IMG/VR virus record: IMGVR_UViG_3300044513_002891
Span: 1-46,932 of that record
Length of the DNA: 46,932 nucleotides
Strand: one strand, 5' to 3'
DNA from: a virus
Lineage: Duplodnaviria > Caudoviricetes
In this document: one piece after another, positions 72-26,200 of the stretch
Layout of the letters: the number at the start of each line of letters is the position of its first letter
Numbering within the stretch: position 1 is the stretch's first letter
Program-made: the position numbers and the translations under genes
The notes under the pieces: model-generated
Told to the model about the DNA's origin: nothing
The model's database searches: none
The model's input: the letters and a program-made list of their open reading frames with translations, nothing else

Positions 72-266
72 ATGAATAAAAAAGAAGTAGTTGAATTAGA
101 GTCGGCGTTTCTAAAATTTATGGAACAAGCAGAAGAATTAGGATTTTACTTTACACGTGATAGTGAAATAACTGCCAAACATAATACAGGTACTGAGAAT
201 CAGATTAATACCGAAGTCAAACTCCGACCTAACGAATATCTAAAAGAACATAACAGTAAGTTTTAG
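72..266 (+). CDS. small hypothetical protein (64 aa)
   Basis: ORF track; closely follows the upstream ORF, codon usage like the rest of the window, hairpin just after the stop. Confidence 0.6.
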   Translation: MNKKEVVELESAFLKFMEQAEELGFYFTRDSEITAKHNTGTENQINTEVKLRPNEYLKEHNSKF

Positions 267-273
267 TATTAGT

Positions 274-300
274 AGATGTGCTAAAGCACATCTTGTTTTC
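274..300 (+). terminator. hairpin AGATGTGC-TAAA-GCACATCT followed by TGTTTT; possible intrinsic terminator or ssDNA hairpin
   Basis: Perfect 8-bp inverted repeat at 274-281/286-293 just after the stop at 266, with T-rich sequence downstream. Confidence 0.5.
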
Positions 301-343
301 GCTATCGCTCAAACACTATTTTTTTCTTTATTTGTTTAAGATT

Positions 344-358
344 AATTGCGAAGCAATT
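344..358 (+). other. AATTGC-GAA-GCAATT hairpin containing the GCGAAGC mini-hairpin core
   Basis: Perfect 6-bp stem with a GAA loop; d(GCGAAGC) is an established, unusually stable DNA mini-hairpin. Confidence 0.55.
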
Positions 359-359
359 T

Positions 360-712
360 AGCATCATGTAGATAGTTGAGCCACAATTCGCCCGTTGCCG
401 GACGAATTGAGTAATTTGGGCCATCATGTGAGTTAGCCTTCACCACATTGTTAAAGAAGATTACATATAATATGTACAGAGGCGGTAGATCGTCAACCCC
501 TTACTTCAGCATTCGCAGTATCCACGGACGGCAGTTGTTCCTTAACAGTGCAAAAACACTTGCCGCGTATGTTGTATCTTTTTCACAGAGCATACATCTT
601 TTATGCCTTTAGTTAGCATTATCCTTGTAACACACCAGTATCTGAATATGGTATCTCACATATCCTCAAGGTGAGTCGAGCATCCTCGACCAAACAGCGT
701 TACTATGTCTTG
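360..712 (-). ncRNA. candidate large structured non-coding RNA, family not recognised, directly downstream of the GIY-YIG gene
   Basis: No ORF in the track and visibly more GC-rich than its flanks. Stems at 384-409 (CAATTCGTCCG-GCAA-CGGGCGAATTG on the minus strand, GNRA loop), 675-690, 627-633/697-703, 529-533/561-565, 547-560 and 462-476. The non-Watson-Crick positions read as G-U only on the minus strand. Confidence 0.65.
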
Positions 713-713
713 C

Positions 714-1139
714 CTATTTTATTTTTTTCAACGCTTCTTTCAAGACTTTCGAACTTCCAACACGCACATTAATAATGCCGTTATAGTATTCATCAGTTTC
801 TAAGACACGTCTATCGAATTGTTCTTTGGCTTCAAGATAACTTAATACGCCTTTGCTTTCACAGTAATATAAAATTTCTCTCGTGAACTTTTCTGGGCCT
901 AATTTTTCTACATCTTCAAGTAAATGATCGGAACTACCCCAATAGTCTCTCCAATCAGATTCTACTTTGCTTCTGCGTTTGTTCTTTTTGCCTTTAAGTG
1001 GTGGGCGGGTTTTCTTGAATTTTGCGAGTTTTTTGCCTACATACTTACGATTGTTAGTTAAATTGGTTATGAGGTAGACAAAGCCTTCTATGCCTTCTGG
1101 GATTTCTGTTACTTCTTGTCCTTGATAAGTCCATTGCAT
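714..1139 (-). CDS. stand-alone GIY-YIG family endonuclease (141 aa)
   Basis: GFVYLITN...KYVGKK matches the GIY-YIG motif; also YWGSS, the catalytic-type Glu in YLEAKEQ and YYN. No C-terminal HTH or Zn DNA-binding domain is apparent. Confidence 0.8.
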   Translation of the reverse strand: MQWTYQGQEVTEIPEGIEGFVYLITNLTNNRKYVGKKLAKFKKTRPPLKGKKNKRRSKVESDWRDYWGSSDHLLEDVEKLGPEKFTREILYYCESKGVLSYLEAKEQFDRRVLETDEYYNGIINVRVGSSKVLKEALKKIK

Positions 1140-1144
1140 ATGGA

Positions 1145-1150
1145 TACTTA
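1145..1150 (-). promoter_or_regulatory. late promoter-like TAAGTA, 5 nt upstream of the GIY-YIG ATG
   Basis: Minus strand reads TAAGTA-TCCAT-ATG, the same geometry as TAAATA motifs elsewhere in the window. Confidence 0.5.
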
Positions 1151-1157
1151 CCCGAGC

Positions 1158-1364
1158 CTACTGTGCCTTGGTGTCTTTTTTGGCTTCGTAAATATTTTTT
1201 ACTTCGTCCATACGTATTTTAGCAAGTGTACGAATCTCTCTGAGCCATTTCCGAGTTTCTTGCATAGTGCGTACACCCTTATTGCGTTCAAAACGTTCGT
1301 TTGCTTTGAAATATTCTAAATACGCCTTAGTTAATTTGTCATGTGTGTCGTCTTGTATGCTCAT
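1158..1364 (-). CDS. small basic helical protein, possibly Hc1 (histone H1-like) family
   Basis: 68 aa, ATGA-coupled to gp46. ERFERNKGVRTMQETRKWLREIRTLAKIRMDEV resembles the Hc1-type pattern; the family call is tentative. Confidence 0.5.
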   Translation of the reverse strand: MSIQDDTHDKLTKAYLEYFKANERFERNKGVRTMQETRKWLREIRTLAKIRMDEVKNIYEAKKDTKAQ

Positions 1365-3130
1365 TCTACTATATCAATATCGTTTGCATAACTTGTAAAG
1401 CCGTTTTCTTTTACAACTCTTAGTACATTTTGGACACGACCTTGCAGTTCGTCTTTGTGCGAAATCAAATAAATGTTTTTCTTGCGTTCTCTACCCATTT
1501 TCTTAAGAATAGCCAAACTGTGTTCAACACCAGCAGTATCCATACCACTGTCAATCAACTCATCAACAAATAACAAGTTAACATTTTGATATAGGCTTTC
1601 CCATACATCGCGGAATGCAAAACTTAAACCTAAGATAAGTCTATTACGTTCACCTCTACTCAAATTATCAAAGTCTAAGTCTTGTCCTAACTGTGTAATC
1701 ATTACTGATAAATCGTTTTGGAACACAACAGTATGTGGCAATCCAATTTTATCTAAGTAATATGTTAGCCTATTGTTTAGATATGCAAGATTCTGTTCAA
1801 TAATCTTTTTACGAATGAACGAATCTTTATTTGTTAAAAGTTTATACAAGAAGTTTTGATGTTCTTGCATTGTTGTAAGTTCGTTTACTATATCCCAACT
1901 AACTTCTTGGATAGCAGTTTTTTCAAGTTCTTCAATTTGATCAACATATGGATCAGTTTCGGTTTCTCTCGCCTTCAGTGCTTGTTTTAGATTGTCAACA
2001 TTGTTTCGGTGATCATATGCTTCTTTGGCTGTTTCATAAAATGTGTTAGGCTTTCCGTCTAAGTCACCTATCTCAGCCAACTTACCTTGTACTTTTTCAA
2101 ACTTGGTATTAATCTCCATTAAGTATGTCATAGTTTCGCCATACTCTTCTTGAAGTTTAGTTTCAATCTCGTGTTTCTTTTCTTCGTGTAGGTCTTGACC
2201 ACAAGCATGACACTTGGCATCGTTAAGACCTTCTAAGTCTTTTGCAAGTCTACTAATTTGTTTGTCTGTTTGACTTAAAGCACTTTCAAGTGTTGCACGT
2301 TCTTTTTCAAGATTAGTTTTGTGCTTGTTGTTTTCTTCCCACTTAGACAGTAGTTCGTGATTAGCAAGTTCTTTTTCAATGTCTAAATGTTCTAATTCGT
2401 CAATACCAGTTTGTAAACGATCACAATCTTTAGCATTTTGTTGTCGCCATGCACCTGATTTAATTTTTAAACTTTCAATAGTTTCTGCAACCTTTGAGTT
2501 TGCAGTTTGAATAGCATTTATTTTTGCAGTTTCTTCTGTAATGCCATCTCGAACTTCCTTTTGTTTTACTTTTAGTTGTTCTGCTTTTTCAGAAAGTATA
2601 GTAATACCTAACAACTGTTCAATGATTGCACGTTGATCGTTGGGTTTTAAACTTAAAAATGGTTCTGTGTAAGTGTTTAGTGCAACAAGGTGCTTAAACA
2701 TTTCGTGACTCATTTGTAATAAGTCATCAATTTCTTTTTGTGTTTCTCTTGAGTCACCTTGTGACTCGTCTGTTATTTCTTTTTCTTCTTCATCAATAAA
2801 AAACTTTAGTACATTAGGACCACGGCCTCGTTCAACTCTATATTTTGTACCGTTTTTTTCAAAGTTAAGTGTAACCAACATACCTTTGCCGTTGGTTTTG
2901 TTAATTAAGTTGTTTTTTCTAATGTTAGTTAATGCTTGTCCGTATAATGCATAAGAAAGGGCATTAATGATAGTGGTCTTACCAGTTCCGTTTCGGGAGC
3001 CACTATCATCGCCTCCTTGATCAAGATTTTCACCTAATACAAGTGTTAGTTGTCTATTGCTGAAATCTACAGCCTGCGTTTGATTGCCAACGCTCATAAA
3101 GTTTTTTACAGTTAGGTCTTTGATCAGCAT
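1361..3130 (-). CDS. gp46: recombination exonuclease ATPase subunit (Rad50/SbcC-like, T4 gp46)
   Basis: VKNFMSVG N-terminus, Walker A NGTGKTT, coiled coil with CHAC zinc hook, LSRGE signature, Walker B LLFVDE, ISH H-loop. Confidence 0.95.
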   Translation of the reverse strand: MLIKDLTVKNFMSVGNQTQAVDFSNRQLTLVLGENLDQGGDDSGSRNGTGKTTIINALSYALYGQALTNIRKNNLINKTNGKGMLVTLNFEKNGTKYRVERGRGPNVLKFFIDEEEKEITDESQGDSRETQKEIDDLLQMSHEMFKHLVALNTYTEPFLSLKPNDQRAIIEQLLGITILSEKAEQLKVKQKEVRDGITEETAKINAIQTANSKVAETIESLKIKSGAWRQQNAKDCDRLQTGIDELEHLDIEKELANHELLSKWEENNKHKTNLEKERATLESALSQTDKQISRLAKDLEGLNDAKCHACGQDLHEEKKHEIETKLQEEYGETMTYLMEINTKFEKVQGKLAEIGDLDGKPNTFYETAKEAYDHRNNVDNLKQALKARETETDPYVDQIEELEKTAIQEVSWDIVNELTTMQEHQNFLYKLLTNKDSFIRKKIIEQNLAYLNNRLTYYLDKIGLPHTVVFQNDLSVMITQLGQDLDFDNLSRGERNRLILGLSFAFRDVWESLYQNVNLLFVDELIDSGMDTAGVEHSLAILKKMGRERKKNIYLISHKDELQGRVQNVLRVVKENGFTSYANDIDIVE

Positions 3131-3133
3131 ATC

Positions 3134-4138
3134 TTATAACTCATTATAAATGTTTAGTAGTGTTTGTTTGTTGTAATTTTCGCTTTCAATAGCATTAATT
3201 TCTTCTGCAACAATTTGATCAACACTTTCAAACTTTGTAATATCAATGTCTGTGTTGATTTGATCGTCTTGTAAACTTGGAATCAAAGTAATTTCACGAC
3301 AGTTGTGTTGACGTTGGAATTCTTCTTTGATAAAACTTGCCTCTTCGTAACTAATATTAATGTCAAGTGTTACTCTAAGATACATTTTATCTTTCATCAG
3401 TGTATCTTTTTGATCAATTAGTTGACTTAGTTTAACTGTGCGATACTTAGGACAGTTTTCCCAATCAAGGTATTGCGGTTCACCGCCGTGTTCGAGGATC
3501 ATCATACCTCTTTTGTCGTCCCAAGCATCTGCATAGTTGTGCGGAAATGCATTACCAATGTACGTTACATTTCCTTGTGTTTGCCTTTTGTGGAAGTGTC
3601 CACTAAAGACATAGTCTTGATGTACAAAATGTTTAGATTGAAGTTCGCCTGTGTCTGGCATTTGTACCATAGCATTCATATAAAAGTTTGGCAACTCAAA
3701 ATGTCCAAACATATATTTGCTTTTAATTTTAGGAATCTTTTTCCATTCTTCACCTACAAGCCAAGGCACCATTGTACTATCACCAATTGTTGTAATCTCG
3801 TCAACAACAGTGATACCTTTAATGTGCTTTGCAAACTCTACAGATTGAATGTCTCTTTTGTCTTTATAATATAAGTCGTGGTTACCAGGAAAGTAAAAGA
3901 ACTGTTCAAAAGACTTTCCAAGTTTTTCAAGACAACGGATTGAGTAATCCATTGTAACAATATTTAAACTGTTTCGATTATGATGCCAATCACCCATAAA
4001 GATGCCGGTTTCGCATCCGTTTTCTTTGGCTGTGTTTATATACCAATCAATAAATTCTTCACAGTCTTCGTTATGTGCTTTTGAATTAGATTTTAATCCA
4101 AAGTGAATGTCTGTGAATACTGCACATTTTTTAAACAA
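3134..4138 (-). CDS. gp47: recombination endonuclease subunit (Mre11/SbcD-like, T4 gp47); TTG start
   Basis: Metallophosphoesterase motifs DIHFG, GDWHH, GNHD and GHFH; adjacent to gp46; GAGG RBS upstream. Confidence 0.95.
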   Translation of the reverse strand: MFKKCAVFTDIHFGLKSNSKAHNEDCEEFIDWYINTAKENGCETGIFMGDWHHNRNSLNIVTMDYSIRCLEKLGKSFEQFFYFPGNHDLYYKDKRDIQSVEFAKHIKGITVVDEITTIGDSTMVPWLVGEEWKKIPKIKSKYMFGHFELPNFYMNAMVQMPDTGELQSKHFVHQDYVFSGHFHKRQTQGNVTYIGNAFPHNYADAWDDKRGMMILEHGGEPQYLDWENCPKYRTVKLSQLIDQKDTLMKDKMYLRVTLDINISYEEASFIKEEFQRQHNCREITLIPSLQDDQINTDIDITKFESVDQIVAEEINAIESENYNKQTLLNIYNEL

Positions 4139-13800: not shown

Positions 13801-14256
13801 CCTGTAAAATATAAAATCTTGTTTGGTAATAAAGCAGATGTAGATTTACAGGCTGTATTTAAAGTTGTTAAAAATACAGAACAAGTTACAAATGATAACG
13901 ATATTAAGTTACGTATTATTACAGCAATCAACCAGTTCTTTAGTTTAGAGTATTGGGACTTCGGTGATAAGTTTAGTTTTAGTGAATTGTCAACTTATAT
14001 TATGAATTCGTTAGCACCAGATATTAACACGATTGTGTTAGTACCTAAACAAACAGAAAAAGTGTTTGGAAGTTTATACGAAATTACAACCGAAAGTGAC
14101 GAGATCTTTATTTCAAGTGCAACAGTAGATGATGTAGAAATTATTGATAGCATTACAGCATCAAGACTAAAAGCAAGTGGTGCAATTACAACTACAGCAA
14201 CAACAGAGAGTTCAGGCATTACATCAAGTTCTAACACTGGAGGAAGTAATTACTAA
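10810..14256 (+). CDS. gp6: baseplate wedge protein gp6-like (1148 aa)
   Basis: DFDSLRRTMINYL, ENYLELAERRESILRLARLLSYNPKR, LFADGTFGNLP, QNRMITGEDY; follows gp25. Confidence 0.9.
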   Translation: MSTTDRQNRLLLAEDWKKVYQTFKNADFKSYDFDSLRRTMINYLRENYPEDFNDYIESSEYLALIDLIAYLGQNLAFRVDLNARENYLELAERRESILRLARLLSYNPKRNQASNGLLKFESVSTSEDIFDSNGVNLANQTIVWNDPSNPDWAEQFRKVLNATLPENAIVGRPVKKYDINGITTEQYRYNATNTNLPVYSFNKNIGEKNLVFEVTSAGITKDKIYEEDPLPGNSLAFLYREDGKGAGSTNTGYFLHFRQGVLDNGVFTVNNPTANQTVAIDATNINNSDVWLYKLDSNGNEEALWTKVDAVEGNNVIYNSLSKNQRDIYTVLTRIEDRISLLFADGTFGNLPKGKFRVYYRKSIGKKFSIQPEEMSNITISVPYESRAGSNETLNIVASLKYTVDNASAPETNQSIKENAPSTFYTQNRMITGEDYQVAPRAISQEIIKSKSINRTSSGISRYFDLIDSTGKYSSTNIYGNDGAIYKETFDKKINFSFVTRTDVEGRIENTVQPILQNILIRNFYLSEFPKTSATDLNATWTQVARQTNNSSGYLKDTLDITLTTGAFTGSTLRYIEPGALVKFISPAGQHFMTNDFNKLMAGPADHPDSTNVLWTKVVQVNGDGTENYADGQGPIIFNDVIPTGALLSEIKPKFATALTADVISQMIDQIFAYKTFGLRYSLTDRQWRVILNSNLSIGNAFNTGRSGDSSNQNLDSSWILLFETDGEKYTITYRGVRYIFESDKEVRFYYDETDQIYDSRSGKIITDKINLLSINKQPDKVESFTLDNPWQITKEYRDEEGYVNSKKVEISFFDSDADGVIDNPDAFTTFVAPETNSLTKWVFAKEEITNNQSTNFNYVVAQAEGIRVYSTETATGPLSVFDNGTIFYFVDVDVFKQYSSTTGQLSLITNYKAYKGRDKIKFQYVHSADENNRLDPSSTNIIDTYLLTSTYDKQFREYLSGVREQKPLPPSSDNLFQSFGADINKIKSISDEVIYHPVKYKILFGNKADVDLQAVFKVVKNTEQVTNDNDIKLRIITAINQFFSLEYWDFGDKFSFSELSTYIMNSLAPDINTIVLVPKQTEKVFGSLYEITTESDEIFISSATVDDVEIIDSITASRLKASGAITTTATTESSGITSSSNTGGSNY

Positions 14257-17200
14257 TGGCATATGATAACGATCAGAACGAGTTTCCGATTAATCCAGAT
14301 GGTGAAAACGAGAAAAGAACAAGTTTAAGCCATTTACCTCGTTATTTCAGAACTCCAGCAAACAAAAAGTTTTTATCAAGTACAATTGATCAACTTGTTC
14401 AACCCGGTGTGGTTGAAAAACTTAATGCCTATTACGGTAGACGAGATGCTAAAGCATTTACTGCCGACGACAATTATGTTGGTGATGTTACAAAACAAAG
14501 AGAAGATTATCAAGTAGAACCAGCAGTAGTTTTAAAAGATGATGTAGACAATGTTACATTCTATAAAGACTACAATGATTTTATTAACCAACTAAGATCT
14601 TTTGGAAATAACAATCCAGATCACAGCAAAATAAATGCACAAGAATATTATGCATGGAATCCCCATATTGATTGGGATAAGTTTGTTAACTTTAGAGAGT
14701 ATTATTGGTTACCTTCAGGACCTCAGGTATTACCTATCTATGGGCAATCAAAAGAAATAGTCTCAACATTTAAAGTATCATTAGAGGAGAACGCCGACAA
14801 TGTAGCATATAAATTTACGCCAACGGGTTTAACACAAAATCCTACTTTAAAACTATATAAAGGTCAAACTTACATATTTGAAATTGACACGCCTGGACAT
14901 CCGATCGCATTTGCAACTAATAGAGCCTTTACTCCAGGACAAGCAATTATTACTGAAACAGTAGAAGGGGTGTTGGCACCTGGTAAGTTTGAAGCAGAAA
15001 TTTATGACAGCGATGGATACGATACTGGCGAATACATAGTTGAACCAGTAGAAGGTGGTATCACAGGATTTACAGAAGGCGAAAACATATCAACATTGTT
15101 TACTGACGGAGTTGAGTCAGCAACAGTGTTTGTTGAGAAAGGAACATTAAAATTCACGGTGCCTTTAGATGCACCAGATAGACTATTCTACATTAGTAAA
15201 AATGATGTTAATACAAGTGGTGTAATTTTAATGTATAACATCTTAGAAAATACAGAAATAAATGTAGAAGAAGAAATCCTTCAGAAGAAAACATATACAA
15301 CAAGAACCGATGTTGATTTATCAAACGGTATGCTTGTTGAATTTTTAGGTGATGTAACTCCTGCAAAATACGGAGAAGGTACTTGGTACGTTGAAGGTGT
15401 TGGTGAAAGCATTCAACTTATTAAAAAAACAGACTTAGAAATCACTGGAGAATACAGTGCTAATTTGTTTGTTCCTTTTGATAGTGAAAACTTTGACAAA
15501 CTTCCTTTTGGTCAAGCACTTAACTATCCTAAAGATAAAGATTATATTACAATTAACCGTGCGGCAATTGATGGTAATCCGTGGTCAAGACATAACAGAT
15601 GGTTTCATAGAGACACTATTGAAAGTACTGCTAAAGCAAACGGCACACAACCAGATCTTGATCAAGCACAAAGAGCCAAAAGACCGATCATTGAATTTGA
15701 TGCAGGTCTAAGACTTTATAACTTTGGTTCAAAATTCAAAGCAAACGTTGACCTAATTGATGATAAAACTATTGACGTATTTTCAACTATTGAAGGTTCA
15801 ATAGGTTATAACATTGATGGTATTGATCTAATTGAAGGTCAGCGTATTTTGTTTACAGCAGATCCAGACATTCGCGTTAATGGTAGAATTTATAAAGTTT
15901 CTTTTATCAATCAACTCGGCACAAGACAACTTGCATTACGAGAAGAAACAGATACAGAGCCTGTAACTAATGAAACTGTATTAGTTCGCAACGGTATTGT
16001 AAACCAAGGTAAAGTATATTGGTATAATGGTACTAAATGGATTAAAGGACAGGATAAACTAAAAGCAAATCAAGCACCGTTGTTTGACTTATACGATGCA
16101 ACAAACAGTACTTTCCAAGACTATAGCAGTAATACTTTTAAAGGTACAAAGTTATTTTCATATAAAGTTGGAACAGGTACCAATGACAGTGAATTAGGAT
16201 TTCCTTTAAGTTATCGAAATATTGAAAACAGTGGTGACATTGTTTTTGACTTTAATTTATTAAATGACGAATTTACATATCAATCAGGCCAAGTAAATTA
16301 CACACAAAAAACTGATGTTGCTACACTAAGAAAGTATACAGATCTTAATGTGTATACTAACGTAAGCGGCTGGAAAAAAGCACCAACCGAAAGTAAACAA
16401 AAAGTTATTCGTGCATATGTTGTTTCAGGAAAGAAAAATAATTTTGCAGTTGATGTTTACAACAACAGCGGAGACCTTAATCAATTAGAAGTAAAAGTTT
16501 TTGTTAATAATGCAAGAAGAACTGATTGGGGAATCAATAGAGAAAACGGAACAGCATATATTACCTTTGATAAAGATTTAACTAACGGTGACAATGTTAT
16601 TTTACATTGTACAAGTGAAGCAGACAAAAACGATAACGGTCATTATGCATTTCCTATTAACTTAGGAAATAATCCGCTAAATGAAAATATTAAAGATTTT
16701 ACATACGGTGAAGTAGCAGACCATGTAACAACAATAATTGAAAATGTTACAGGGTTTTCAGGAACATATCCGGGAAGCAGTAACTTACGTAATTTAGGTC
16801 AACTATCAGAATATGGTACAAAATTTGTACAGCATTCTGGACCTGCTACATTAGCATCATATCATATTACAAATAAAAACTATAACATTGTAAAAGCGTT
16901 ACGTTTTGCAAGAAAAGAGTATGCAAAGTTTAAAAGATCATTCCTTGCTATTGCAAACGAACTTGGCATTGACGGCAGTTCGAGATATGTTGTTGATGAA
17001 GCAATTAAAAAATGGCAATCAGAAAAATCTAAGCAAACAGCATTTTATTGGTCAGATATGATCGGTAATGGCGCAAACAAAAAACGCAGTTTTACAGTTA
17101 CTGATATTGAAAACAAGTTTTATAGTTTAACAACACCATTTACACTAAACAGTATTTCTGCTATTGCAGTTTATGTTTACTTAAATGACACTCAGTTATT

Positions 17201-20200
17201 ACATAATAGAGATTATGTTTTTACTGCTGAAGGATTTATTAAACTTACAGATAACGTAACACTTGCTGTTGATGACACAATAGACATTTATGAATATGAC
17301 TCAACAGATGCTTCATATATTCCGCCAACACCTACAAAGTTAGGTTTATGGCCGTTACACATTCCAGCAATATATGTTGATGATTCTTATCAAACATCAC
17401 AAACAGTTATTAAAGGACACGACGGTAGTATTGTAAAAGCCTACGGTGACTATAGAGATAACTTGTTATTAGAATTAGAACTAAGAATTTACAACAATAT
17501 TAAAGTAAAATACGACACAAAAATATTTGATGTTGATTCTTTTATAGGTCACTATTCAAGAAATACCGGATTTGATACAGAAGATCTAAACGATATTATT
17601 ATCACTGATTTTGCTGACTGGTTATCAGTTGCAGGCGATCCTGATTATACTGATATTAGTTTTTATGATAGAACGAATTCCTTTACATGGAATTACAGTT
17701 ATATGACCGATCCAAACGGAAAACCTTTACCGGGTTTTTGGAGAGCAATTTATAACGATTATTTAGGAACAGATACTCCGCATACTACACCGTGGAAAAT
17801 TTTAGGTTATGTAGATAAACCAGAGTGGTGGGAAACTGTTTATGGTGCGGCACCTTATACAAAAGAAAATTTAATTTTGTGGGAAGATTTACAAGAAGGT
17901 AGAGTACGTCAACCTCTTAATCCAATTAGATATCGTCCAGAATATGCAAGACGTGACTTATTAAAATACACTCCAGTAAATTCAAGAGGTGAATTATTAA
18001 GTCCATATGAATCAGGATTTGCACAAGGGTTAATTGTACCAGAAACAAACAGACAGTTTGTGTTTGGCGACCAAGCGCCTACAGAAACAGCATGGCGTAG
18101 AGGAAGTGAGTATCCGTTTGCTTTCTTAACAGCATGGTTAATTCACCAACCTTCAAAAGTAATTGGCATAGGTTTTGATAGATCACGTATTATAAGAAAT
18201 ACAGCAGGCGAATTAATTTATACAGGAAGTAACAAACGTCTTAAAGTTAGCGATTTAATTTTTCCTAATACGTCAAGTAGTACTGTAAGAACGTCTACTG
18301 CTGGTTTAGTAAACTATGTTTTCAACTATATTAATGCAGATGTTACAAAACTAAATGTAAATTATAGTAATGAAGTTTCTAAGTTAAATGTACAACTTGG
18401 ATTTAAGATTGGCGGCTTTAGTACAAAAGATAAATTTAGATTAGTTTTAGATTCACGTACACCTAACAATAAAGGTAACGTGTTTATTCCTGAAGAAAAT
18501 TATGATTTATTCTTAAACACATCATCACCGATTGATACAGTATCTTACAGTGGTGTTATTATTGAAAAACGACCTGCAGGATATATTGTTAAAGGATATG
18601 ATAGAGCAAAACCATATTTTAGTTACTATAAGCATCTTGAACGTGCAAAAGATCCTGTTGTAAATATTGGTGGTGTAAGTGAATCATTCCTTGAATGGGT
18701 ACCTGGCGAAAGATACCAAGCAGGACAGATTGTACGTAACGGTCAAACGTTCTTTAGAGTACAACAGTCAGGAACGTTTGATACATTTATTCAAGATAAT
18801 TTTGTTAAGTTAGTAGAACTACCTATCGAAGGTGGTAGAACTATAATTCTAAGAAGAGAGTTTGAAACTGCAACATCAAAATTAAATTACGGAACACTGT
18901 TTACAACAGTACAGGGTGTTGTTGATTTCTTACTTGGCTATGGAAAGTTTTTAGAAAAACAAGGTTTTGTATTTGATAGATTTAATGGAACTATTGAAAC
19001 AGTTGAGAACTGGGAACTATCAGCAAGAGAGTTTACTTTCTGGACTACACAAAATTGGAATAATGGTGCGTTATTAACTTTATCTCCAAGTGCTATTAAC
19101 TTGAACTTTAAAAGAGAGTATGCAGTTGTAGACAACATCTTTGATAACTTTTATGATTACACATTATTAAAAGCAGACGGACAAAAATTACAAGAAGATT
19201 TTGCAAACACAATTAGAAGTAGTCAAAACGAGTTTGGTCTTACACTTAAAAACACAGCAGATGGAATTTACTTTGTTAAATTACCATTAGTTCAAAAAGA
19301 GCACGTTTGTTTAATTGATAATAAAACAGTCTTTAATGATACAATTTATAATCCAGCACCTGGTTATAGACAAGCAAGAATTAAAGTTCTTGGTTATCGT
19401 AGCACAGACTGGAACGGTGGTGTAAACATTCCAGGCTTTACACTTGATAGTGTTAATGTAGTTGATTGGAAAGAAAATACAGATTATCAAATCGCTGACG
19501 TTGTTTATTACAAAACACGTTACTATAGTGCAAAAACAAAAATACCTGGATCGACGGTGTTTAATGCAGACGAGTGGTATTTGTTAAATGAAAAACCAAG
19601 TAATGAACTAATACCAAACTTTGATTATAAAGCAAATCAGTTTGCAGACTTTTATGATTTAGATACTGACAACTTTGACAGTGAACAACAAAGAATGGCA
19701 CAGCATCTAATTGGTTATCAAAAGAGAACATACTTAGAAAATATTATTAATGATGATGTTTCACAGTATAAATTCTATCAAGGATTTATTCAAGACAAGG
19801 GTACAAAAAACTCTTTAGAAAAATTATTTGATGCATTATCAAACACAGAAAATTCAAGTTTAGAATTTTTTGAAGATTGGGCGTTTAAAGTAGGACAATA
19901 CGGTGCAAGTGAATCGTTTGACGAAGTTGAATATGAAATTGATGAATCTAAATTTAGACTTTCACCACAGCCGTTTCAATTAGTACAAAATATTGATCCT
20001 CAAGCAACAGACTTAGTTTATAGATATACTCCTGTTGATCTTTATAGCAAACCTGCCAAGTATGATCATAAACCTTTCCCAACAAAATATGTTGCTGAAG
20101 ATTCATCATACATTAAGACTGCAGGTTATGTTGCTGAAGAAGATATTAATTATAAAGTTACAAACTATGATGATATTTTAAATTTAGATCTTAACACAGT

Positions 20201-23200
20201 AGAAATAGGCCAGTATGTTTGGGTCGCTAAGAAAGGCCAAACTTGGGACGTATTACGTCAAACTGAAACTGATATGAAAGTATCAAGTATTATAAACAGT
20301 GACAGTTCTAAGTCTATTGAAATTAAAACTAAGAAAGCACCAGATACACAACCAGGTGACATCATTGGTGTGTTAGGTGTAGGTCCTAAACAGAACAGAT
20401 TTTATAAAGTTCTAAGAGTAAGTTTAGATGTAATTTATGCTCAAACAACTGGCGAAGTTGAAGATGCTCCTGAAGCAAGTGGTTTTATATTAAAACTTGT
20501 AAGTTCAAGAGTAGCAAACCTCACAGATGTTAATAGTAAAATTACAAGGGACAACTACTCAACACAGGAACGTGTTTGGGTTGACTATGATGAAAATAAT
20601 AGATGGACAGTTGTTGAAAATCAAAACACATATTCAATCGCACAACAAGTTTTTAATACAACAGTAGCAGGTGTTCAAGATACTGATGTAAGAGCATTTG
20701 GCACAAGCATTAGTTCAAATACAAATAACACTATTATTGCAGTAGGGTCACCGGCGCCTATTGGAGCAACAGAATTAAGAAATGGACAAACTAAACCAGT
20801 TCTTGGTAGAGTAGATGTACACTTTAGAGCAAGTGAAAATATTAATCTTATTTTATCACAGTCGTTTGATTGTCCTGAAAACTATTTTGATAATGTTGAA
20901 AACTTCGGTAAGTCAACAGCAGTTTCGTCAGATGGTAAATGGATATTTGTAGGTATTCCTTATGCTTCGAATGTAAAAACAAAATACAAAGGACCTTTTG
21001 TTTCTTCAGCATCATACCAGAAAGATGAAATTGTAGAGTATACTAATCAATATTGGAAAGCAAAGAATATTATTGAGCCAACTGATCCAAGTTTAGATTT
21101 TCCAAGTTTCAGTTCTCACTTAAGACATTTAATTAGCACATACGATGCTAATACTCAGCAGTATGATAATGTCTATTATATTCTAAGAGGTAACTTTACA
21201 TTCCAAGAAGAAACTACAGATCACGTTTTAATTAGAGCACCGAGACTTGCATATGTAGCAACAACTCCGGGTGATACTTTACAACTTTTCTGGAATGATA
21301 TTAATACAAGATACCCAAGTGGTGTACAACCATTTAATGGTAACCCAACAATAAACAAAACTTTCTTTGATGGTAATCATACTATTGCTGACAAAGTTGA
21401 TGATATTCTTTTAGTAGATAACACACAGGCTATACCAAGTGTGGGCGAAACAATTAGTAGTGCAACAGCAGTTGGTGTCGTTGCGTTTACTTATACAACA
21501 GGCGACAATAGAACTTTAATTTATGTTAAAGATGCAAATGGTGATTTCGAATCTACAGGTACACTGTTTGTAGGTGATATATCCGTTGGTGCATATGAAA
21601 GAGCAGTTGAACAAGATTACGATGCACTTGGCGGTTGGTGGAAGATTAACGTCGGATCAACATTCCAGTCTATTGCAACTATTGAAACTAAACCGTATCT
21701 TGTTATTCAAGATGTTATTCAACAAGGTGTTGTTAGAAATCCAAACTATTATCAAAACGTACTAAGAATTACTGACGATGCAACATCTCCAACTATAACT
21801 TCTTATATTGAGAGTTTAACATTTACTGGAGACTCCGGTGATGAGTTATCTGATAAGTGGGTATTTAGAGCACCAAGAACATTAGACACTGATTTAACTG
21901 TAGGTAGTACATTTAATTTCTTCTTTAATGAATACAGAAATGCAGACAATGTATTACAAGATCCAACAGCAATTGGTAGTAATATTACTCATGATTACCT
22001 AAACAATACGTTACATACTGTAAACGATATTTGGGACGGTTGGATTGATGTTAACTTAACAAACTTTGATGATAGAGGTTCTCCTACACCAGGCGATCCA
22101 GATTTCAACCCTAATTACGGTAATCCCTTTATTCCTGTTGTAGGGGATACAGTTCAAGACAATGATACATTAGCAACAGGTCAAGTTGTTTATCTTGAAA
22201 AAGTTTTTAACAGTTTAAGAGTATGGATTAAAAACAAAACAGGAACTTGGAAGTTAGGAAATGAAAACCAAGCAATATCAAGTTTAAGTATTGTTGGCGG
22301 CTCTCAAGGTGTTGGCGTAATTAGACTTGTAGGTACAACTCAAGATGTACATTTACAATCACAAACAGCAGGATACATTGTTGTTGTAGACAGAGGCGAA
22401 AATATTCCAAGAGGTACATCACGTACACTACAAGGATTTGAATATTGGATTTATAAATCTATTCTATTAGATGGTATTGCAAGATCTGCAAACCCACCAT
22501 CTAAAACAAATAATGACTGGACAAGAGTATACAATATTCCAGCAGGAATAAACGAAACATCAAGTGGATTAGCAAGACAAGGTGCTTATGCAATATACCA
22601 ACGAAATGCAAGTAACTTCTTTACACTTATAGGAATATATTCAAGTCCAGATGCACAACAAGACAGATATCTTGGAAGTGATATTAGAATTGTATCTCAT
22701 ACTAACGGTACATACTCTGCTTATATTTTAAGCAAAGGTAATGCAACATTTAATCAACCAGGTAGAATAAACATTCTAAACTATGATGTAAACAATGGTT
22801 GGAAACTTGGTGCTGATGAAAATTACAGAGGCGACTTTACAAGTACTGTTGCATATTTCCAAGACGAGTATGTTAAGTTTAATGACTCAGTTTACAAAGC
22901 AAAAACTAATTTAATTCCAGGAGGCTTTAGGGCATCCGATTGGGAAGAAGTTTCAACAGGTGTACAACTAACTGGATTCCTTCCTAATAATACAGGATTT
23001 ATTGTTGGAACTGACAGTGCTATTGAAACTGAAAACTTATACGAGTTTGGAACACAGTTTGATATTAGTTTCACTGGTAGCGTATTAGCAACTGTTGTTA
23101 AGTACGGCGATGCAGTTGACAGTTCAGTTGCAACAAGAAAATTAGTTATCTATAGAAAATCATTGTTAGGACATTATGTATTTGATCAAATGATTGACGC

Positions 23201-26200
23201 ACCTTATCCAAATATTAATTATGGTGATTCGGTTGCAGTTTCAACAGATGGCAAATTTATTGCAGTAGGTGCTCCTAATTATACAGACACATATTCAAAC
23301 CAAGGTACAGTGTTTATATACGAACAAATCAATGGTAGATTTGAACAGGTCCAACACTTAATAGGTCCTAAAGGATTACCTAATGAAAAGTTTGGTACAG
23401 TAATTAGATATGATAACGATAGAATTGTAGTTCACTCCGCGGGTGGTGACTTATTCAATAGAACAGAGTTTGATTCAGGTACAACAGTATTTGATAATGG
23501 AACAACAATCTTTAGTTCAACACTTGTTGATACAGGTGAAGTATTTGTATTTGAACTGTTAGGTAATAGATATGTTTACAGTGATAAATTAGAATACTCT
23601 AATGACAAAACATTATACTTTGGTAGAACACTATTAATTAAAAACAATCACATTTATGTTTCATTACCACAATTTAAGCGTGATGGCAAAAATGTTACAG
23701 GACAAATTTTAGATTATAGAGTTACGCCAAACACAAGACTATGGTCAAGAAAAAGAAATCAAAGACCTCTTGTTGATATTGAAAAGATTAAAGGTATTTC
23801 GATATATGATAAAGATACTAAAATCTTACAAGAGTATTTAGATTACATTGATCCTATTCAAGGAAAAATTGCAGGTCAAGCAGAGGTTGAACTTTCATTC
23901 AAAACTACATTTGATCCGTCAACATATAACAACGTAGATACAACCGATGTTAATAAAGACGAAACATCATTTACGTCAACAGACATGGTTGGTAAATTAT
24001 GGTGGGATACTGATGCTGTAAGATTTATTAATCCATATAGTAATACAGGAAATATTTTCAATGTTGGAAATACATTTAATACAGTATTCCCAGGAACAGA
24101 AATTGAAATTTACGAATGGGTTGAAACTAAATTAACACCAGAAGAATGGGACGCTCAAGCAGATACTGAAGCAGGACTTACTGAAGGTATTAGTGGTAAA
24201 TCGAAATACGGAATAAAGGCATATAGTACTAAGCGTGTTTATGATGAACCAGCACAGAAATTTACAACTTATTATTACTTCTGGGTACGCAACAAAAAAA
24301 CTGTTCCGAACTTACCAGGTAGATTAATTAGTGCGGCAGATGTACAAGAATTAATTAGAGAGCCGTCAGGACAAGGTTATAAGTTTATTAACTTCCTTAA
24401 TAACAATGAATGGACTGCACATAATTTAGAAAGTACAATACGTGGTAAAAATGGTGTATTGAAATTTGCTTATTGGAATATTGATAAAACAGATAATAAT
24501 ATTCATAATCAATATAAACTTATTACTGATGGCTTAGAAACAAGTAGACCTAAATCAGACCTTGAAAGAAAATGGTACGATAGTTTAATTGGTTATGATG
24601 AGCAAGGACGAGAAGTTCCTGATAGATTCTTAGGCGAAAAAGAACGTTATGGCATTCTAAACAATCCAAGACAAACTATTTTTGTTAACAGAATTGAAGC
24701 ATTAAAACAATTTGTTGAAAGAGTTAACAGCGTTTTAATTAAAAATGTTTTAATTGATGACTTTGATTTATCTGATTTAGATAGTAACGACCCAATTCCA
24801 ACATTGTCATCAAGAAGATACGATGTTCAAATAGATTCTGATTCTGAATTACAATTTGTTGCTGTAGGTAGAGTAGCAAAAGCAACAGCAAGTGCAACAA
24901 TTTCAGATGGTAAGATTATAAGAGTAGACATAACAAATCCTGGTAGAGGATACAAAACTGTTCCTACACTTAGAATTAATTCAAGCACAGGTTCCGATGC
25001 TGAAATAAGATTAGAAATTAATGCAATAGGATCTGTAACATCTGCAACAGTAATCAATAGTGGTAGAAACTATCAAACAAGTGATACAATTACTATTAGA
25101 AACTTTACAGTTTTAACAACAGTAGATAATAGTTATGCTAACAAGTGGTCATTATACGAATACGTAGGTGGTGCTGAACCTTGGAATAGAATTGCAAGTC
25201 AGCGTTATGATGTTAGACCATATTGGAATTACACAGACTGGTATGCAACAAATTACAATACACTAACTAAAATAGATTATGTAATTGACGAAACATATGA
25301 ACTTGAAGCCTTAGATGATACCTTTGGTGATATTATCAAGATCAAATCAGTTGGCTCAGGTGGCTGGTTACTATTACGTAAGATTGATGATCAACTAAAC
25401 GTTGATTACACTATAAACTATCAAACAATAGGTAGACAAAATGCTACAGTACAACTTAAATCATCAATATATGATTATGCAGATGACTTAGTTGGTTATG
25501 ACTCATTTGGTTATGATGATAGTGCATTTGATTTACAACCAATTGACGAATTAAGAATTGTTCTCAAAGCACTAAGAGATAAGATCTTTGTTGACAACTT
25601 AGCAGTTCATTATAATGAATTGTTCTTTGCACAGATGCGTTATGTATTATCTGAGCAAACTTTTGTTGACTGGATGTTTAAAACAAGTTTTGTTAAAGCA
25701 ACACACAACATTGGTAAGTTAAGAAAAGATATTACGTTTAATAATGACTTCTTAGAAAGTTATGAAAATTATGCTAATGAAGTTAAACCTTATAAAACAA
25801 AAATTAGAGAGTATTTAAGCACATACGAAGGTAGTGAAAACTCTCAAACTATGGTAACTGATTTTGATTTACCTCCAGCATATGATGAACAACAAGGTAG
25901 AATTGTTCCACAGAACGCTGTTGTTGTTAATGATGAATTAAGAGTAGCAAGTAACTTAATTAATTCTTATCCATACAAGCATTGGGCAGATAATGCAAGT
26001 TATGAGATTAAAGATATTACAATATTTGATGCAGGTGCAGGATATGAAAATGCACCAGGTGTTGAGTTTGTCGGCGGCGGCGGTAGCGGAGCAACAGCAA
26101 TAGCGTATGTTGGCGGCGGCAAGATTACAGAAATTAAAATTACTAATCCAGGTACTGGATACCTAAGTGCTCCAAAAATTGTACTAAATGGCAATGTTGC

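Follow-up and report, generated by a model that had tools for sequence, protein, structure and literature searches.

Compact nucleases encoded beside a structured RNA are known from IscB and TnpB with their omegaRNA/HEARO partners, and the pair described here, a small nuclease gene next to a conserved structured RNA, resembles them. From our analysis, however, the protein is GIY-YIG by Pfam and by fold, not RuvC/HNH, and does not co-evolve with the RNA; order and co-transcription are not fixed, and no guide or target was found in the four own contigs, all of them fragments. A small nuclease beside a structured RNA does not, taken alone, point to RNA guiding.

Several systems resemble the element itself. 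As excerpted in PMC5043065, ColE1 RNA II has a host-type promoter, a long folded ncRNA, no need of an initiator, a link to RNase H and a downstream strand used for loading, of which the element shares the folded RNA and may share the rest; nevertheless, no sequence or Rfam similarity was found between the two, and the element has twin boxes and pseudoknots and resides in phages. The T4 origins oriF and oriG share with it the T4-like phage background, a (here candidate) promoter with AT-rich DNA downstream and, putatively, early priming by a transcript, but the available part of PMC4412123 describes them as a promoter plus an unwinding element, without a conserved ornate RNA. At the G4, St-1 and alpha3 origins and at RSF1010 ssiA, the portion of PMC13037366 at hand reports mini-hairpins of the kind GCGNAGC/GCGNNAGC, with GCGAAAGC, GCGTTAGC and GNA forms, and the same loops occur in hairpin H2 of 8 and 5 of 114 elements [Table 1]; those sites are, in that portion, primase sites of ssDNA phages or plasmids without an upstream folded RNA. 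Finally, the Rfam motif Polynucleobacter-1 (RF01718; Weinberg et al. 2010, PMC2864571, in part) was matched at 62-115 bits as the 5' domain of four relatives (L048, L023, L225, L184) with the same core, boxes and hairpins, whereas the window's own 5' domain is another fold without an Rfam match. Core, boxes and hairpins all lie outside the 141-nt model, and the rows available from the source give no function.

Extent and fold of the element

The window, i.e., the whole stretch of 46,932 nucleotides analysed here, is a fragment of a T4-like phage. It encodes proteins like gp47 and gp46 and a late sigma factor, besides structural genes, among which lies a 4,972-aa ORF (14256-29174, plus strand). 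Related contigs of 185-236 kb were rated 51-66% complete, which is indicative of a clade genome of ~350 kb. The gap at 267-713 is, as initially annotated, the largest non-coding stretch of the window (447 bp vs 84 bp for the next gap), and the assignment of its structure to the nuclease strand agrees with the better folding of the minus strand (z -1.93 vs -0.60 for plus). Conservation runs from the nuclease stop codon to ~274, giving an element of ~440 nt on the minus strand (716 to 274); the initial annotation rightly placed a structured RNA here, but its ~350 nt stopped short, at 360 instead of 274.

Table 1. Features of the element and its surroundings in the window.
Feature	Position	Strand	Remarks
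Hairpin H3	274..293		C-TTTA-G; C-GNA-G in many relatives; 6/8 pairs compensatory
Mini-hairpin H2	295..314	-	GC-GATA-GC with tandem GA pairs
A/T-rich tract	315..343		from sequence
Mini-hairpin H1	344..358		GCGAAGC on plus strand
Box 2	362..373	-	ATCT + ACATGAT, heptamer 369-363
Inter-box hairpin	384..409	-	GCAA loop; sense-strand specific
Box 1	422..432	-	CTC + ACATGAT, heptamer 429-423
Double-pseudoknot core	449..565	-	P7 565-529; PK2 547-542/454-449; PK1 525-520/490-485; P8 507-504/459-456; P9 501-496/483-478; P10 475-463
Hairpins P5 and P6	567..619	-	P5 619-603; P6 595-567, 3/4 pairs compensatory; conserved A-rich loops
5' multibranch RNA domain	627..703	-	P1 703-699/631-627; P2 691-674; P3 673-670/636-633; P4 665-644
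Seg-type GIY-YIG nuclease gene	714..1139	-	141 aa, catalytic domain only
Sigma70-like promoter	716..743	-	TTGAAA-16-TAAAAT, inside nuclease 3' end; candidate own promoter of the RNA
Late-promoter-like box	1145..1150	-	TAAGTA, 5 nt before ATG
68-aa ORF and gp46-like ATPase	1158..3130	-	context upstream of nuclease gene
gp47-like nuclease	3134-4138		context

We took the best 80 homologous loci of an estimated ~3,800 stretches; 72 had at least 250 nt downstream and, together with the window, yielded 65 distinct downstream sequences, 56 of them linked by BLAST. The covarying structure expected downstream of the nuclease gene was found: in 16 same-class homologs, 58 pairs were 99.7% paired and 31 of them had changed on both sides, which none of 500 shuffles reached, while slid controls of the alignment were 36-42% paired, a comparison that flatters the result because the structure was drawn from the same 16 sequences. 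In helices such as P3 and PK1, three or four kinds of pair occur. Every helix listed in the initial annotation is present, two of them as non-conserved alternatives. CUCAC/GUGAG gives way to the conserved pairing of 673-670 with 636-633 (4/4 pairs compensatory), so that the closing helix shortens to 5 bp, and the AGUGU-UUUU-GCACU hairpin does not belong to the conserved fold, in which its loop takes part in a pseudoknot. Two pseudoknots, the twin boxes and three 3' mini-hairpins had been missed.

The element thus recognised has three parts, namely an RNA-like folded domain, the twin boxes, and GNA/GNNA mini-hairpins. The 5' multibranch domain, with compensatory changes in P1-P3, is exchangeable between lineages and takes at least four folds, one of which is Polynucleobacter-1, and the pseudoknotted core is of at least two types among relatives. 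PK1 is 100% paired in the 16 homologs, with 4/6 pairs compensatory; over the 63 distinct cores that could be anchored (another 4 could not) it forms 5.3 of 6 pairs vs 3.8 with swapped partners (maximum 4.2), and the best PK2 helix averages 8.2 vs 6.5 bp, a weaker contrast than that of PK1. No Rfam family matched anywhere in the window at gathering or E-value level, the gathering threshold of RF01718 (37 bits) included, and for the element this covers GOLLD, ROOL, RNase P, tmRNA and introns; ARAGORN found no tRNA or tmRNA. A group I intron with a GIY-YIG ORF was considered and rejected, there being no split gene and no Rfam match. Element profiles were searched by nhmmer, which misses divergent classes, several of them recognised only by eye. 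More large structured RNA classes occupy the same slot in L396, L400, L402, L437, L445, L468, L490 and L492; they have no Rfam match, and some share only the 3' mini-hairpins.

Twin boxes, mini-hairpins and transcripts

The loci used to compare the boxes were found by protein and not by box pattern. There were 136 core matches, 23 of them without a box anchor, and the remaining 113 gave 85 distinct elements. Positions 1-6 are equal between box 1 and box 2 in all 85, and 13 of the 17 heptamer types have an identical partner vs 0.8 after shuffling, an identity that is somewhat inflated by the choice of the best anchor in the box search. The boxes are identical within one element and different between lineages. 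Differences at position 8 run G>A in 24 cases vs A>G in 3, which is the direction tolerated by an rG-dT wobble. EBS-like internal pairing of the boxes was rejected, since a complement lies inside the RNA in 1 of 84 elements vs 5.8 expected.

The hairpins on the two sides of box 2 differ in kind. In the inter-box hairpin, G-U pairs far outnumber A-C (114 vs 5) and GNRA loops close 25 of 106 hairpins, whereas the hairpins beyond box 2 have no G-U bias (41 vs 64 A-C). C-GNA-G triloops make up 114 of 234 of the latter in 114 elements, divided equally between sense and antisense (57 each), and cUUCGg loops are absent from the hairpins downstream of box 2. The loops of H2 are GNYA in 46 and GNRA in 39 among 114 elements, i.e., GNNA and not GNRA. 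From sequence, the strand-symmetric mini-hairpins beyond box 2 look like DNA-level structures. H2 occurs once per contig in three of four contigs and is absent from the fourth, and origin-type mini-hairpins number 2, 2, 3 and 2 per contig, with 1, 2, 1 and 2 of these at the element. The element itself is single copy, with one per contig in the 236, 200 and 185 kb fragments of relatives. A 64-aa ORF (72-266, plus strand), present in only 2 of 78 related loci, converges on the element, and the terminator-like hairpin that a terminator scan assigns to this ORF is H3.

Conceivably, the element could instead encode a trans-acting large ncRNA, a GOLLD/ROOL-like scaffold or ribozyme whose boxes would be tandem sites for protein binding in the RNA and whose 3' hairpins would be terminators or insulators. 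The double pseudoknot, the modular 5' domains, the RNA-like inter-box hairpin, the terminator-like H3 on the plus strand and the independence of the element from the nuclease (see below) would all suit such an RNA. We nevertheless regard it as unlikely, because GNA/GNNA loops are equally frequent on both strands and cUUCGg is lacking, these genomes do not employ the mini-hairpins elsewhere, and Rfam searches brought up neither GOLLD nor ROOL, nor RNase P, tmRNA or introns.

RNA coverage was drawn from contigs of 8 of the 24 listed RNA runs, and such contigs give no strand. They cover the nuclease gene and the folded domain. Co-transcription of the two, as initially proposed, agrees with one contig that spans 426-1148, but a contig over two features is no proof of one transcript. 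Own-strain contigs end at 426, 427, 421, 432 and 418, i.e., at box 1, in five of the eight runs, all five from 2017 freshwater and maybe from one campaign; the boxes lie outside the contigs of runs X6 and X8, and run X7 has contigs of relatives that extend to 379 and ~340, which indicates that the RNA may also continue past box 1. An RNA 3' end at box 1 is accordingly a weak hint. The stretch 115-285 is free of RNA contigs, an absence that carries no weight, and the contig start at 1148 shared by three runs may be a graph branch.

The sigma70-like promoter [Table 1] matches the consensus at 10 of 12 positions and is one of 7 such sites where 3.9 were expected. By consensus matches only, a comparable pair lies near the stop codon in 11 of 78 tandem relatives vs 0 of 78 at mid-gene. 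Of 24 distinct loci of the divergent class, 22 have a -10-like TATA box ahead of the RNA, and a -35 is often present as well. The late-promoter-like motif ascribed to the nuclease gene holds up among relatives: of 71 full-length genes, 62 have TAAGTA at a distance of 4-8 nt from the start codon and one more has TAAATA; the structural genes of the window carry TAAATA.

The nuclease gene as a neighbour of the element

The protein is, as first described, a catalytic-only GIY-YIG nuclease, a single domain of 141 aa without the C-terminal DNA-binding domain of Seg-type homing endonucleases. It matches PF19835 (121 bits, E 3e-35) and phrog_447, shows the Seg-type fold with the catalytic motifs FVY, YVG, Glu and Asn, and has a 47%-identical homolog annotated as cd10444. 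In the AlphaFold2 model (pLDDT 84) the basic insert (residues 40-60) is predicted as a beta-hairpin, and the best fold match is the I-TevI catalytic domain (Z 6.6, rmsd 2.9, 77 aligned). Searches of PDB by sequence gave no match, Foldseek with the model gave nothing under E 0.001, and PADLOC returned weak homing-endonuclease matches only; Slx1, T4 endo II and Ssn do not appear in the structure-match list, an absence that does not exclude them. The family is widely labelled 'NAD synthetase' (phrog_447, GenBank records), apparently a mis-annotation.

We then compared the positions of gene and element. A class-specific 20-mer search found 95 loci, and in all 77 with enough flank the gene lies directly upstream. 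With the wider twin-box pattern, 120 loci were recovered; 80 have long flanks, and 70 extend at least 800 nt upstream. In these 70 the gene is directly upstream in 54, separated by a longer spacer or an inserted gene in 8, downstream in 1 and missing in 7. In four of the seven, a PD-(D/E)XK nuclease fills the slot (two confirmed as PF24608), and among PD-(D/E)XK loci the element core stands directly behind the gene in 15 of 28. From a distant GIY-YIG query, 80 loci were obtained. Gene and element stand in tandem in 18 of them and diverge in 32, as direct neighbours in 27 and far apart in 5; the element lies upstream in 10, flanks are short in 9, and 11 are without a profile match, of which those that were read show other element classes by eye. 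Gene and element are adjacent in four arrangements, also in a small phage without gp46/47. Conversely, phage Melnitz encodes a 75%-identical protein after nrdB, followed by a 148-nt gap, and has no element match genome-wide; four annotated distant homologs have downstream gaps of at most 111 nt, and cyanophage homologs have no downstream gap. The two are thus persistent neighbours, but the element is independent of the protein's identity, its orientation and its transcript. The GIY-YIG gene is a frequent neighbour of the element and no obligate partner.

The trees point in the same direction. With 92 rows (FastTree, labels assigned by pattern), the nuclease tree requires 9/15/20 changes in core, 5' domain and box labels and the gp46 tree 6/15/18, vs 27-59 in shuffles, which is indicative that the RNA fold tracks the nuclease no better than it tracks gp46. 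Five relatives (L043, L044, L050, L058, L059) with gp47 91%, gp46 81-83% and nuclease 75-77% identical to the window carry another RNA class, which is a recent module swap. In L405-L443, L066, L067, L071 and L074, the gene, or gene and element separately, are inverted in place and still adjacent. Unrelated genes of 230-360 aa are inserted just upstream of the element in L188, L207, L215, L239, L244 and L251, and the site looks like an insertion hotspot.

The guide-type ribonucleoprotein of the initial annotation, in which nuclease and RNA associate and the RNA serves as guide, scaffold or regulator, e.g., as inhibitor, could be argued from the frequent adjacency, the single contig over both and the basic insert. 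We consider it very improbable: in 27 of the 80 loci the element is divergent from the gene, with a candidate promoter of its own, a nuclease of another fold displaces the protein, very different RNA folds stand behind proteins 75-85% identical, Melnitz has a homolog but no element match, and cyanophage homologs have no downstream gap. The variable parts of the element are hairpins, and the search for a guide-like segment found no target better than E 0.1 in the four own contigs, all fragments.

A different link would have the nuclease act on the element as DNA, by Ssn-like hairpin cutting or by nicking that spreads the cassette, hence the adjacency. Ssn enzymes are, in the excerpt of PMC11893778, small single-domain GIY-YIG nucleases that cut near flanking ssDNA repeats beside hairpin DNA, and the adjacency here persists in tandem, divergent and reversed order, in 54 of 70 twin-box loci and in 31-kb phages lacking gp46/47. 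Ssn is, however, cd10448 with many repeat copies in that excerpt, unlike our single-copy element and Seg-type protein; the same box types stand behind GIY-YIG and PD-(D/E)XK nucleases, and box type tracks the nuclease tree no better than gp46 (20 vs 18 changes). This link is improbable in our estimation.

We read the nuclease as a probable branched-DNA nuclease, late and stand-alone, of the gp46/47 recombination block, as suggested by its position in that block and by its exchange for a PD-(D/E)XK protein that faintly matches Hjc (E 0.008). It likely acts on replication or recombination intermediates, possibly at the putative origin of the element. In L215, L218, L225, L250 and L467-L494, a PF24608 PD-(D/E)XK gene replaces the GIY-YIG gene after gp46, possibly a non-orthologous displacement of a resolvase. 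PF24608 was found in none of 5 GIY-YIG contigs and PF19835 in none of 10 contigs (8 with the PD-(D/E)XK gene, one short); as those contigs are 5-66% complete, mutual exclusion of the two nucleases was not counted as evidence.

The element as a putative replication origin

The replication primer that the initial annotation had held in reserve fits best among the readings, and we tentatively propose that the element is an RNA-primed replication origin of ColE1/T4 type, with a probability of just under one half (about 0.48). The promoter would make a folded RNA of ~290-350 nt that would remain paired with its own DNA at the twin boxes, as an R-loop, and prime synthesis; box 1, copied into RNA, may pair with the box 2 template strand, or one protein may bind both boxes. 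On the displaced strand the conserved mini-hairpins would form, and these would load primase or primosome. We infer this role of the boxes from their match to each other, the lack of a complement within the RNA and the G>A bias at position 8. The single copy, the -10-like promoter in divergent relatives while the nuclease has a late box, and mini-hairpins of DNA type as at G4-type origins further point to an origin, and the own-strain RNA contigs that end at box 1 add a weak hint.

Two neighbourhoods are also consistent with an origin. An RNase HI gene (PF00075, 152 bits) is present in 11 related loci, directly upstream of the element where read (L468), and in one clade (L468:3636-4052 and L469-L478) it lies between the PD-(D/E)XK nuclease and the element; these neighbours are 87-100% identical, i.e., one evolutionary event. 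Secondly, two complete phages of 31 kb (rated 100%; G016 with L497 and L498, G017 with L499 and L500) carry the element and the GIY-YIG gene, and 40 of their ORFs (32 of G016 and 8 non-structural of G017) gave no polymerase, primase, helicase, initiator or integrase family, although many ORFs are without annotation and small unknowns could be initiators. Their annotated genes, including head, tail and methylase genes, are all on one strand, and they carry TAAATA late-type boxes with no match to a sigma factor. These phages are candidate satellites; L387-L401 are listed with them as small-phage loci with element and nuclease.

Against an origin, the inter-box hairpin is RNA-like, a box of 6-7 bp offers little length to re-anneal, the RNase H neighbour goes back to a single event, H3 is explicable as a terminator, and only 11 of 78 tandem loci have a sigma70-like pair near the stop codon. 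The RNA of the element is also more ornate than T4 origin transcripts are known to be. A GC-skew switch ~4.5 kb from the element follows gene direction, so that the skew is confounded and no evidence for an origin. A packaging or concatemer-resolution site with a regulatory transcript would likewise be single copy, with direct repeats and a late nuclease beside it, common to jumbo and small phages. Such a site leaves the conserved double-pseudoknot RNA unexplained, and in G016 the element is ~5 kb from the terminase gene; we consider it very improbable.

The element is real, conserved and mostly undescribed. Although ~2,200 stored viral stretches are estimated to carry the twin-box pattern, the element matched none of the annotated phage records, searches of the literature found it nowhere described in full, and matching terms are absent from the main text of a 2026 language-model survey. 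Rfam contains a single 5' variant. Fremin 2023 (PMC10690425, in part) lists 63-67-nt candidates beside Seg-type genes (DNAVirus_227, DNAVirus_6326), which may be catalogued fragments of the element. In cellular genomes, 53 pattern matches included 8 with a real core score, all in contigs of bacterial MAGs (L303, L312, L321, L342, L343, L349, L352, L353); five of these lie near nuclease and gp46, which is indicative that the MAG hits are probably mis-binned phage and the rest chance.

A wider extension, which we regard as unlikely, is a portable class of origins with a double-pseudoknot RNA and a box code, carried by satellites that hijack jumbo phages, with the nuclease processing the origin. 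If it were true, the 3' box would re-pair with its twin DNA box to set the primer, the box would be a compatibility code, and the 31-kb satellites would hijack the replication and late-transcription machinery of jumbo phages. In essence, if the element is an origin, it would show how a large clade of uncultured jumbo phages starts replication, give a function to the orphan Polynucleobacter-1 motif, and provide a short clonable unit to test.
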